Assembly (NCBI GenBank): GCA_964413325.1
Contig: CAYPRK010000010.1
Coordinates: 47,595-111,594 of the forward strand
Direction: 5' to 3'
DNA: 64,000 nt
Source of the DNA: an uncultured Novosphingobium sp.
Lineage (GTDB): Bacteria; Pseudomonadota; Alphaproteobacteria; Sphingomonadales; Sphingomonadaceae
The translations under genes were made by a program, and so were the position numbers. The notes under the pieces were generated by a model that worked only from the letters and a program-made list of their open reading frames with translations, was not told where the DNA came from and did no database searches. Each line of letters starts with the position of its first letter. Positions within the stretch are counted from its first letter, which is position 1. This document shows positions 39,256 to 41,349 of the stretch, one piece after another.

Positions 39256-41349
39256 TTACGCGCCCGTCTTGCCAGCGCAGGTCGGGTTGGCGGCCGATGC
39301 CGGAGTCGGGTTCAGACGGGTCGAGCGAGCAAGCTCGGCAACGTCCTGGATCCAGAGGTTCTTCGCGCCAAGGTCGGGGCTGACAACCGACTTGGACAGG
39401 AAGGTCTGGGCAATCGCAGTCTGCCAGGCGAGCGGAACGATCCCGATGTTGGCCTGCGAGAACATGCCGTAGTTCGCCGGGCTCACGCCCTTGAACGTGT
39501 TCGGGTTGACCGCGCCGTAGGTCGAGGACTTCTTCACCACGCCCAGCGCGAGGCCGAGCAGGTTCACGATCTGCTGGCGGTTGCCCGAGGTGTAGCAGGT
39601 GTAGCCGAAGAACTGCGTGGTGCCCACGATCGGGTAGCCATCCGCCGGAGCGGCCAGCGAGTTCGCACCGCTGTAGAGCACATCGGTCCAGGCGATCGGG
39701 TTGTCGCGAGTTGCGGGAACCGAAACACCGGCCGCGTTGCGGACGTTGCGGGTATCGCCCGGCACGTAAGCACCGGTTGCGTCCGATTCGGGCGGCAGGA
39801 TCTGCGTCGTGCCCGCACCGAAGGCGCGCAGGGCGAGGGCAACCGACGGCTGAGCGTAGCCGAGGGTGGTGCCGACCTGCAGCGAAGCGCCAACCACCGA
39901 GCCGACAGCAGCGACCGGAGCGTCCGGCGACGGCTGGATGGCGTCAGCGGAAACGTAGCCGATCTTGCCGTTGAGCGTGACACCGTTCAGCGCGTAATCG
40001 GGTGCGAGACCGATGAACTTCGCGACGTTACCGCCACCGTTGGTGACAGTGAACAGGCCCGAGCCCTGGTTGCCGACCGGAGCACCCGACGGCGTGATTG
40101 CACCGCCAGCACCGTTCAGGTGAACCGGGGTAGCGTTGGTGCCGTCGTAGTAGTCACCCGAAACGAGGTTGGTGTCGCCGGCAAAGCGCGTCTGCGCCGC
40201 ACTCGTCTTGTAGTTGGTGTCGGCACGAACGCTGGTGAAATCGACGTTCGAGGTCTTGTTGTAGGGCAGGTTCTCGGTGGCGCGGATGTAGACGTTGGTC
40301 GCACCGGTCGGCATGTTGCCGGCGAGGCTGCAGACCGCCGAAAGGTGGCGCGAGAACACGTCGGTGGTACCCGAGTTGTCGAGACGGCCGACCAGACGGA
40401 TCGGGGCACCATCGGTGGTCCAGCGGGTCAGCGTGTCATTCACCGGATCATGCAGCGAAGTGCGCTTGTTGAGCGCCTTCAGGATCGGATCGTTCCAGTT
40501 CTTGATCGCACCGTTGAAGATGCCGCAGTAGGCCTGACGGTTGAGACGCAGGGTGCGGTAGGTCGTCGTGTTGAACTTCACGTCGAACTGGGCGTTGAAC
40601 GTCATCGGCGTGCCGCCCGCGTTCTTGCCATAGACGGTGTTGAACGCCACGGCGACGGGGAGCACGAACAGCGGGAAGGTCACCGCCGCACCGGCCACCG
40701 GAACGGGGCTGGTGAACGGACCAGTGGTGGCGTCAGTGCCACCGCTGTTGTAGGCGGTGAGGTCAGCCGGCGAGATCGGCGTGTCCGAGATCGCGAACTG
40801 GAGGTGCGACCAGCGCGCGTCGGGCGCGGCAGTGTTCTCACCGATCGTGTTGAAGGGGTTGAACACACCGGCGGTCGCGGTCGTGCCGGCGCCGTCGAAG
40901 TTGTCCTGGAACTTGTACCACATGCGGCGGCCGAAGCCCGAACCCGCACCGACATACTTGCCCGAGAAGTTGGGCTGGATGTTGGTGGTCGGCGAGGCGG
41001 TGTCACCGCCGGCGCAGATCAGCGCGGGATTGGTGGCCGAAGCGACGGTCGGGTTGTAGATGCCAGCGGGAACGACCTTGAGCGAACCAACGGAAGCCGC
41101 TGCACCAGCCTGGCCCGGCTGACCGTCGCCACGCTTGTGGTCGATACCGACGCAGTTCATCTCGCGCACGAGGACGTTCTGAACCGAGGTCGCACCAGCG
41201 CCGTGGATCGAGGCGTCGCCATCGTTCGGGCCAGCAGCGGGAAGCAGCGGCAGGGTCGGCACGAAAGGCGGAAGAGCGGCATGAGCGGGGTTCGCGGCCA
41301 GACCGGCAACGACAGTCGCCGAGAGAAGCGCGTACTTCAGTTTCAACAT
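39256..41349 (-). CDS. Large secreted DING/PstS-superfamily phosphate-binding protein (697 aa)
   Basis: Phosphate-site motifs 'IHGAGATS', 'GAGSG', 'FAISDTP' and 'RLDNSGTT'; also 'IGYVSAD' and 'YPIVG'. DING-type C-terminus 'GIVPLAWQTAIAQTFL...TCAGKTG'. Signal peptide present. No pstCAB nearby. Confidence 0.85.
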   Translation of the reverse strand: MLKLKYALLSATVVAGLAANPAHAALPPFVPTLPLLPAAGPNDGDASIHGAGATSVQNVLVREMNCVGIDHKRGDGQPGQAGAAASVGSLKVVPAGIYNPTVASATNPALICAGGDTASPTTNIQPNFSGKYVGAGSGFGRRMWYKFQDNFDGAGTTATAGVFNPFNTIGENTAAPDARWSHLQFAISDTPISPADLTAYNSGGTDATTGPFTSPVPVAGAAVTFPLFVLPVAVAFNTVYGKNAGGTPMTFNAQFDVKFNTTTYRTLRLNRQAYCGIFNGAIKNWNDPILKALNKRTSLHDPVNDTLTRWTTDGAPIRLVGRLDNSGTTDVFSRHLSAVCSLAGNMPTGATNVYIRATENLPYNKTSNVDFTSVRADTNYKTSAAQTRFAGDTNLVSGDYYDGTNATPVHLNGAGGAITPSGAPVGNQGSGLFTVTNGGGNVAKFIGLAPDYALNGVTLNGKIGYVSADAIQPSPDAPVAAVGSVVGASLQVGTTLGYAQPSVALALRAFGAGTTQILPPESDATGAYVPGDTRNVRNAAGVSVPATRDNPIAWTDVLYSGANSLAAPADGYPIVGTTQFFGYTCYTSGNRQQIVNLLGLALGVVKKSSTYGAVNPNTFKGVSPANYGMFSQANIGIVPLAWQTAIAQTFLSKSVVSPDLGAKNLWIQDVAELARSTRLNPTPASAANPTCAGKTGA

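Follow-up and report, generated by a model that had tools for sequence, protein, structure and literature searches.

Gene Architecture and Conserved Motifs

The window analyzed here is a 64,000-nucleotide (nt) stretch of DNA from an uncultured Novosphingobium sp. (GenBank assembly GCA_964413325.1, contig CAYPRK010000010.1, positions 47,595 to 111,594). The gene under study is a reverse-strand open reading frame (ORF) of 697 amino acids (aa) that is predicted to encode an oversized, DING-like phosphate-binding protein and lies divergent to a type II secretion system (T2SS) operon (Table 1). The ORF coincided exactly with that called in an initial annotation of the window. On inspection, its N-terminal residues 1–24 had the features of a Sec-type signal peptide, with neither a lipobox nor a twin arginine; these residues were disordered in the structural model described below (predicted local distance difference test, pLDDT, <50), and the N-terminus was kept among orthologs. 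The predicted mature protein of ~673 aa begins with ALPPFVPT.

The translation contained IHGAGATS at residues 48–55, GAGSGFG at 134–140, AISDTP at 186–191, GRLDNSGTT at 321–329 and VPLAWQTAIAQTFL at 638–651. Cysteines occurred at C275 (YCG), C340 (VCS), C585 (TCY) and C691 (TCA), with an additional pair at C66/C112. Every PstS ligand motif, cysteine pattern and tail reported in the initial annotation was found, and the third cysteine pair that it had placed near the N-terminus corresponds to the conserved C66/C112. The same held for its ribosome-binding site, AAGGAA at 7 nt from the start codon, the core of which, TTGGAAGGA (AAGGA), did not vary across five species, and for its strong terminator. 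The latter is a hairpin that folded better than expected (z = -5.3; 0 of 200 shuffles equally good) and was kept in loci L001 and L003; a consensus terminator and promoter scanner overlooked it and RNA folding recovered it.

Fold, Relatives and Putative Phosphate Site

The only Pfam match was PBP_like_2 (E 2e-10, residues 126–403), and a single-sequence search of the Protein Data Bank (PDB) returned Mycobacterium tuberculosis PstS3 as its sole match. A family profile (A1) of 55 homologs was searched against the PDB with hmmsearch and also served as the basis of an AlphaFold2 model. The best profile matches were DING proteins, led by 4m1v (9e-20), then 2v3q, 3w9v and 4f18 at values up to ~5e-18; next came a Stenotrophomonas phosphate-binding protein (~1e-11), and classical PstS proteins scored 4e-8 or worse. 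In these alignments C275, C340, C585, the GYPI.G.T..CY block and the W..AI..FL tail matched DING equivalents, while C691 fell in a C-terminal extension outside the DING alignment.

The AlphaFold2 model had a mean pLDDT of 90.3 and a predicted template modeling score (pTM) of 0.90. Searched with Foldseek, it gave PfluDING, PA14 DING and HPBP as the top ranks (E ~1e-15, target-normalized TM-score 0.70–0.74), with PfluDING 4f1v at E 1.1e-15 and a TM-score of 0.71, compared to 2.5e-11 for Escherichia coli PstS. Identity to DING proteins over the structural alignment was merely 16–17%. The alignments to binders of only 320–380 aa covered ~630 query columns, which, together with the map of insertions, indicates one binder fold and not two; a tandem duplication of the periplasmic-binding-protein domain was ruled out on this basis as the source of the double size.

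Compared to DING proteins, the extra mass comprised ~295 residues, divided between extensions at both termini and seven or more insertions, located by converting profile positions to query residues: ~94 before residue 158, then 20 within residues 158–238, 23 within 239–263, 20 within 287–315, 73 within 356–455, 26 within 513–541 and 15 within 542–657, and 24 at the C-terminus. Insertion residues mostly had a pLDDT >90 and are thus predicted to be ordered. These results bear out the initial description of a PstS/DING relative enlarged by insertions, and where that description had suggested predicting the structure of the insertions, the model places them as ordered parts of one compact globule. 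Aligned family members ranged from 603 to 879 aa, with the variation at the same hot spots as the insertions. Larger members also exist (P0089, P0093, P0069 and P0094, 860–911 aa; P0172, 996 aa), and their added insertions of 12–36 aa were rich in Tyr, Thr, Ser and Ala and for the most part lay in regions already variable in the family (after reference residues 27, 41, 116, 127 and 347).

Conservation was scored over the 55 homologs at positions equivalent to E. coli PstS T10/F11, S38, D56, R135, D137, S139, G140 and T141. S137, R322 and G327 were present in 100% of them, S326 in 54 and D324 in 53, while position 54 held T or S, position 55 S or A, position 189 D or E, and position 328 T or S. 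The eight phosphate-coordinating positions of DING proteins are occupied in the window protein by T54, S55, S137, D189, R322, S326, G327 and T328, and each of the six cysteines was present in at least 54 of the 55 homologs. In PstS and DING structures this set of residues buries orthophosphate by hydrogen bonding, and its retention makes phosphate the likeliest ligand of the 697-aa protein.

The bacterial DING proteins (Psp/PfluDING, PA14_55410 and HPBP; 4f1v, 3w9v, 2v3q) thus gave the best profile and structural matches and have the phosphate-ligand positions in common with the window protein. DING proteins contain two disulfide bridges; the window protein has an extra conserved cysteine pair, C66/C112. 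The classical PstS proteins (E. coli 1ixi/2abh, M. tuberculosis PstS3 4lvq) share their bilobal fold and ligand set (T10/F11, S38, D56, R135, S139, G140 and T141 equivalents) with the window protein, which, however, is twice as large, has no pstCAB neighbors and matches them less closely than it does DING. Judged by its sequence and the model, the protein appears to belong to the DING/LapA branch of the PstS phosphate-binding proteins, as an oversized form specific to its lineage; read in this way it would be a DING/LapA-like exoprotein, yet neither a formal DING protein nor a PstS equivalog.

A protein of this branch might also be an enzyme, namely a secreted low-molecular-weight alkaline phosphatase or phosphodiesterase of the LapA type, with the insertions forming a surface for organic or polymeric phosphate. 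The Hxc substrate LapA (PA0688) has been called an alkaline phosphatase (PMC2242829, PMC10715133), the PDB entries of PfluDING are titled "putative alkaline phosphatase", and an enzyme would be expected to have the same genomic position and regulation as a binder. However, the conserved residues are exactly the orthophosphate-burying set of PstS and DING, neither a catalytic nucleophile nor a metal site was recognized in the protein, and the nearest solved structures are phosphate complexes of binders, so that an enzymatic role is considered unlikely.

Codon Usage and Promoter Region

The codon usage of the gene was unlike that of every neighboring gene. The T-ending share (T3) of Ala, Gly, Val and Arg4 codons was 0.30, against ~0.09 in the neighbors, while that of Pro, Thr, Ser and Leu4 codons was unshifted (0.08). 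Among two-fold codons, C was used over T at 0.90, against ~0.68 in the neighbors; GGA, GTA, CGG, CGA, AGR, ACA, CCA, TCA and ATA were absent, and GGG was used once. A T3 rise limited to Ala, Gly, Val and Arg, with rare codons absent and C-ending two-fold codons increased, is a pattern of translational selection. Low-GC horizontal transfer as the cause of the shift was ruled out by the restricted T3 pattern, the absent rare codons and the recurrence of the shift in orthologs: the gene ranked first among its neighbors for T3 bias in 10 of 14 orthologous loci. The HU gene, the only one in the window whose product is known to be abundant, had a T3 bias of 0.34, like the DING-like gene. High expression is therefore a reasonable inference from codon usage. 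The preference for GCT, GGT, GTT and CGT noted in the initial annotation was borne out and resembles that of a highly expressed gene; its stronger statement, that the protein is the most abundant product of the island, has codon usage as its only basis. The HU gene forms a lon-hupB pair (59888–62830, minus strand); its listed ORF begins at an upstream TTG, and the true start is probably the ATG at codon 17 (MNKNDLIS...).

Pho boxes consist of two 7-bp direct repeats with an 11-bp period, located ~10 bp upstream of the -10 element and replacing the -35 element. Upstream of the gene, the site at 41617–41634 reads GAATCAC-ATTT-CTGTAAT and is followed by 9 nt and CTATCG, an arrangement that matches Pho-promoter architecture and of which the spacing and second repeat were conserved in 21 loci. 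This second repeat agrees with CTGT(C/A)A(C/T) as quoted in PMC2225411. The site was recognized in an alignment of the 470-bp intergenic region from five species, which was poorly conserved apart from shared sites. The pattern TCAY-N4-YTGTMAY occurred once in the window against 0.1 expected, a post hoc figure, as the pattern was derived there. As an independent test, 21 of the 55 sphingomonad loci (survey described below) carried it between -180 and -350 relative to the gene and in the same orientation, while its other matches were five in ~1 Mb, three of them directly upstream of tpsB. Further Pho-box-like sites face the T2SS operon and precede tpsB in the window, and a site equivalent to the latter lies 5' of tpsB in L006, L008 and L009. 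The conserved Pho-box-like promoters provide sequence support for regulation by phosphate, which the initial annotation had only put forward for testing, and control of the gene by PhoB can be inferred from them.

Transcription would start by the CTATCG element, giving a 5' untranslated region (UTR) of ~245 nt. An Rfam search of 39000–42000 returned nothing near gathering scores, and the fold of the 5' UTR was not significant (z -1.9). Parts of the leader (41350–41600, minus strand), such as GGTTAAGGGGGAATCAGG at ~41557–41574, were conserved between species, and the leader might contain a regulatory element; in P. aeruginosa, a small RNA from the lapA 5' UTR was reported (PMC12131859).

Gene Neighborhood and Comparison With Pseudomonas Loci

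Downstream of the gene and on the same strand follow, in order, genes for TpsB, ExbB, ExbD, a TonB-like protein, a PF16930 porin and the giant exoprotein TpsA (Table 1). The two-partner secretion (TPS) domain of TpsA (E 1e-15, residues 175–347), together with TpsB, identifies a two-partner secretion pair. TpsB was set aside as the exporter of the DING-like protein, which has no TPS domain (PBP_like_2 being its only Pfam domain). The divergent operon encodes a complete T2SS, and no pstCAB was present among the window genes scanned, both as the initial annotation had it; nor was pstCAB found beside distant homologs. No vreAIR-like sigma/anti-sigma genes were seen adjoining the cluster, and the N-terminus of GspD carried no lipobox of the kind expected of an Hxc-type liposecretin.

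Table 1. Features of the DING-like gene and its surroundings in the 64,000-nt window.
Feature	Position	Strand	Basis or remark
Phosphate-binding protein gene, DING-like	39256..41349	-	ORF with ATG start, 697 aa; one PstS-type fold predicted
Sec-type signal peptide, residues 1–24 (MLKLKYALLSATVVAGLAANPAHA)	41278..41349	-	Read from the sequence by eye; cleavage site between AHA and A
Ribosome-binding site AAGGAA	41356..41361	-	7 nt 5' of ATG
Intrinsic terminator	39186..39223	-	Perfect 16-bp hairpin and T run, 33 nt past the stop codon
Pho-box-like site GAATCACATTTCTGTAAT	41617..41634	-	In place of a -35 element; cross-species alignment
-10-like element CTATCG	41602..41607	-	9 nt past the Pho-box-like site; a CTAT-like element recurs in other loci at constant distance
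Pho-box-like site TGTAACGCGAATGTCTA, facing the T2SS operon	41754..41770	+	Single occurrence in the window; kept in L001–L004
Pho-box-like site CTGTAACACTGCTTACAC	39120..39137	-	48 nt 5' of tpsB start, just past the terminator; kept in L001 and L003
T2SS operon: GspE, F, G, H, further pseudopilins, M, secretin D, K	41822..51690	+	Divergent; complete
TpsB (ShlB/FhaC-type) outer-membrane transporter, 556 aa	37402..39072	-	Pfam: ShlB and POTRA_2
ExbB-type proton channel	35571..37400	-	N-terminal DUF2341 and LamG
ExbD	35126..35533	-	
TonB-like protein	34408..35112	-	TonB_2 C-terminal domain
Outer-membrane porin, PF16930 (Porin_5)	32504..34408	-	
TpsA exoprotein, 4419 aa	18731..31990	-	N-terminal TPS domain, C-terminal DUF3739
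HU	59888–60208	-	Downstream of lon; Pfam Bac_DNA_binding, E 1e-34

A survey with one genome per species gave 55 sphingomonad loci, in which neighbors were scored within 10 kb. T2SS genes (GspE/F) were present in 31 of them, GspD in most of these 31, and a TpsA-like giant in 40; one or the other was present in 46, and the nine with neither were mostly short contigs. Two distant long members of the family (E ~1e-70 and 1e-66) had the same partner genes in other orientations. The set TpsB, ExbB (DUF2341 and LamG), ExbD, TonB, PF16930 porin and TpsA (4300–4400 aa) accompanied the gene, rearranged, in L064, L065 and L066 as well, even beside distant homologs. In this set, the ExbB proton channel carries fused LamG and DUF2341 domains. 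Between the porin gene and tpsA there is a gap of ~510 bp (31991–32503, minus strand), at which L065 and L066 have a gene of 232 aa with no Pfam match.

The locus strongly recalls phosphate-regulated (Pho) islands of Pseudomonas. In P. fluorescens SBW25, the DING gene psp is flanked by the hxc T2SS cluster on one side and a gene for a 4083-aa hemagglutinin on the other, and it has a Pho box; Psp is induced by phosphate limitation and secreted chiefly via Hxc (PMC2225411). Heavy secretion of Psp, together with the giant PFLU2428, was found in the same strain, and PF16930 porins are abundant, PhoBR-dependent components of the Pseudomonas exoproteome (PMC5082522). Like psp, the window gene adjoins a T2SS and a hemagglutinin-like protein of ~4000 aa, with Pho-box promoters (PMC2225411). 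This precedent and the synteny in 31 of the 55 loci back the link to the T2SS drawn in the initial annotation, although the link remains one of analogy and position.

In P. aeruginosa, the operon phdA-pdtB-exbB2D2-tonB4-PA0696-0701 and pdtA are under Pho control, the operon with Pho boxes (PMC4971064), LapA is a substrate of Hxc (PMC10715133), and a DING protein 45% identical to LapA is known (PMC2242829). The LapA/LapB (PA0688/PA0689) locus, hxc-lap-pdtA-phdA-pdtB-exbB2D2-tonB4, has the same set of modules (T2SS, PstS-family exoprotein, TpsA giant, TpsB and ExbB/ExbD/TonB) with all of them apparently under Pho-type control (PMC4971064); the likeness to LapA is drawn from this locus content, not from the LapA sequence, and a search started from a 101-aa piece of a DING protein to recover complete DING and LapA sequences yielded only five fragments. 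The window differs in gene order and orientation, in having the PF16930 porin inside the operon and no vreAIR-like genes in view, and, compared to Hxc, in a secretin that shows no lipobox. An alphaproteobacterial parallel, compared by description, is ElpS of Caulobacter crescentus: phosphate starvation induces it, its gene adjoins a T2SS, and its release depends on the T2SS (PMC2996285). Unlike the window protein, which has no lipobox, ElpS is a lipoprotein anchored at the surface and freed by proteolysis. The window thus holds the sphingomonad counterpart of a known Pseudomonas Pho island, with the binder as a size variant within a known kind of system, and the whole multi-module island is common to gamma- and alphaproteobacteria.

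The initial annotation had suggested that the protein forms part of a surface coat, with insertions that mediate attachment or polymerization; as a coat or appendage component it might, for instance, decorate the TpsA fiber. Hxc-dependent surface appendages rich in PstS/DING were reported in P. aeruginosa (PMC2242829), Psp is co-secreted with the giant PFLU2428 in SBW25 (PMC5082522), the TPS and DUF3739 giant is linked to the gene in the majority of loci and beside distant homologs, and codon usage suggests a high copy number. Nevertheless, neither a lipobox, a sorting or anchoring signal at either end, nor a repeat was seen in the sequence, Pfam detects the binding-protein domain alone, and the model (pTM 0.90) is one compact globule with its insertions ordered. 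A structural role of this kind is regarded as very unlikely.

Proposed Function

The best reading of the locus, and probably the correct one, is that the gene encodes a PhoB-induced, highly expressed, Sec-exported and T2SS-secreted binder of orthophosphate. The probability attaches to the reading as a whole; we infer from sequence, model and analogy that the gene is under PhoB control and that its product is abundant, depends on the T2SS, binds phosphate and ends up outside the cell. Under phosphate limitation, PhoB would bind the Pho box ~270 nt upstream of the gene and drive strong, monocistronic transcription that stops at the hairpin terminator, and the strong ribosome-binding site and biased codons would ensure efficient translation. 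The precursor would be exported by Sec and would fold in the periplasm with three disulfides, after which the adjacent, co-regulated T2SS would carry the folded binder across the outer membrane. Outside the cell, the binder may capture orthophosphate in its conserved PstS-type cleft and aid phosphate scavenging alongside the co-regulated TpsA/TpsB, ExbB-ExbD-TonB and PF16930 porin genes.

Several observations weigh against this interpretation. DING proteins measure ~38–40 kDa (~375 aa), compared to ~673 aa for the mature window protein, and begin with DINGGGATL when mature, where the window protein has SIHGAGATS at residues 47–55, preceded by ~22 residues (the family consensus at this position is LHGAGATS). 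The score for TIGR00975, the PstS equivalog, was 45.4 bits against a cut-off of 205, and the insertions could alter or occlude the cleft. A strict scan for CTGTCAT-N4-CTGTCAT (at least 10 of 14 matches) found no site in the upstream region of the gene in the window, and the first half of the proposed Pho box is degenerate. The internal reference for high expression is a single gene of 90 aa, and the sequence was found in activated-sludge DNA metagenomes and in no RNA run. Secretion rests on synteny and analogy, because T2SS substrates have no recognizable secretion signal, and no T2SS was located within 10 kb in 24 of the 55 loci, a set that includes paralogs and short contigs.

These 24 loci would also suit a periplasmic PstS paralog that feeds a PstCAB encoded elsewhere, with the T2SS being coincidental or serving other substrates. 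The Sec signal peptide and the full set of PstS ligands agree with such a protein, and classical pstS genes are likewise Pho-regulated and abundantly expressed. On the other hand, DING outscores PstS by both sequence and structure, the TIGR00975 score lies far under its cut-off, and no pstCAB is found among the window genes scanned or beside distant homologs. The divergent arrangement with the T2SS is kept in 31 loci, with shared intergenic Pho-box-like sites on both strands, and surface insertions of ~295 aa with three conserved cysteine pairs would better fit an extracellular protein than one that docks on a transporter. A periplasmic role is thus improbable, to about the same degree as the enzymatic one.

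Beyond the proposed secreted binder, the island might form one integrated, Pho-controlled apparatus for extracellular phosphate harvesting, composed of the binder, the T2SS, the TpsA fiber of ~4400 aa with TpsB, LamG-ExbB/ExbD/TonB and the PF16930 porin. The binder would act as an antenna that docks through its insertions on the TpsA fiber or the cell surface, and uptake through the porin would be energized by the TonB complex. Such an arrangement is quite unlikely; if true, it would account for the PstS/DING-rich appendages of P. aeruginosa.

The proposed function would extend the Pseudomonas DING/LapA-Hxc paradigm to the Sphingomonadales, which are common in sludge, freshwater and the rhizosphere and on plastics. 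Far from being peculiar to Pseudomonas, the Pho island of binder, T2SS, TpsA/TpsB, ExbBD-TonB and PF16930 porin seems to be a module that is old, mobile or has been retained repeatedly. The DNA comes from activated sludge, and a phosphate binder that is abundant outside the cells could influence how wastewater communities capture phosphorus. The PstS fold would accommodate ~300 ordered inserted residues at fixed hot spots with the ligand set kept, and such a double-size scaffold is relevant to binder engineering and to annotation, the present label being merely "substrate-binding domain-containing protein".

Family Distribution

A search of a collection of 5.8 billion proteins returned 190 homologs, nearly all of those listed being 600–900 aa in length, and the named homologs among the matches listed belonged to Novosphingobium, Sphingomonas and Sphingobium. 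In a representative library, 171 clusters matched at E <= 1e-30 and 1082 at E <= 1e-3, the names of the clusters with distant homologs being uninformative. In the one-genome-per-species scan the family was found only in Sphingomonadales, and a literature search found no paper on this sphingomonad family. What is new here is this restricted family together with its scaffold of ~295 ordered extra residues and its third cysteine pair, along with the sharing of the entire island by gamma- and alphaproteobacteria.

Some genomes carried two copies, namely L019/L026 (N. percolationis, on one contig and ~20 kb apart), L023/L025 (N. cyanobacteriorum) and L039/L047 (Hephaestia caeni). In the Novosphingobium pairs neither copy had a T2SS within 10 kb, and some copies lay just downstream of a DUF3739 giant; both Hephaestia caeni copies adjoin T2SS genes. 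The Pho-box pattern was present upstream of L025 and L026.

Other Features of the Window

A polysaccharide cluster flanks the island (5970–18474) and includes a Wza-like exporter (Poly_export/SLBB), an ABC-2 transporter pair, a GSCFA-TPR protein, two epimerase/dehydratase genes and, directly after tpsA, a 797-aa GT4 glycosyltransferase; the giant TpsA exoprotein might be glycosylated. At 444–4538 (plus strand), a protein of 1364 aa with weak SdrD_B and CarboxypepD_reg-like matches near its C-terminus is possibly a large surface protein. ORFs of 300–400 aa with no Pfam match were located at 56044–57273 (minus strand), 54261–55978 (minus strand) and 58881–59777 (plus strand), and the GC content of the window falls to 0.59 at 56–58 kb.

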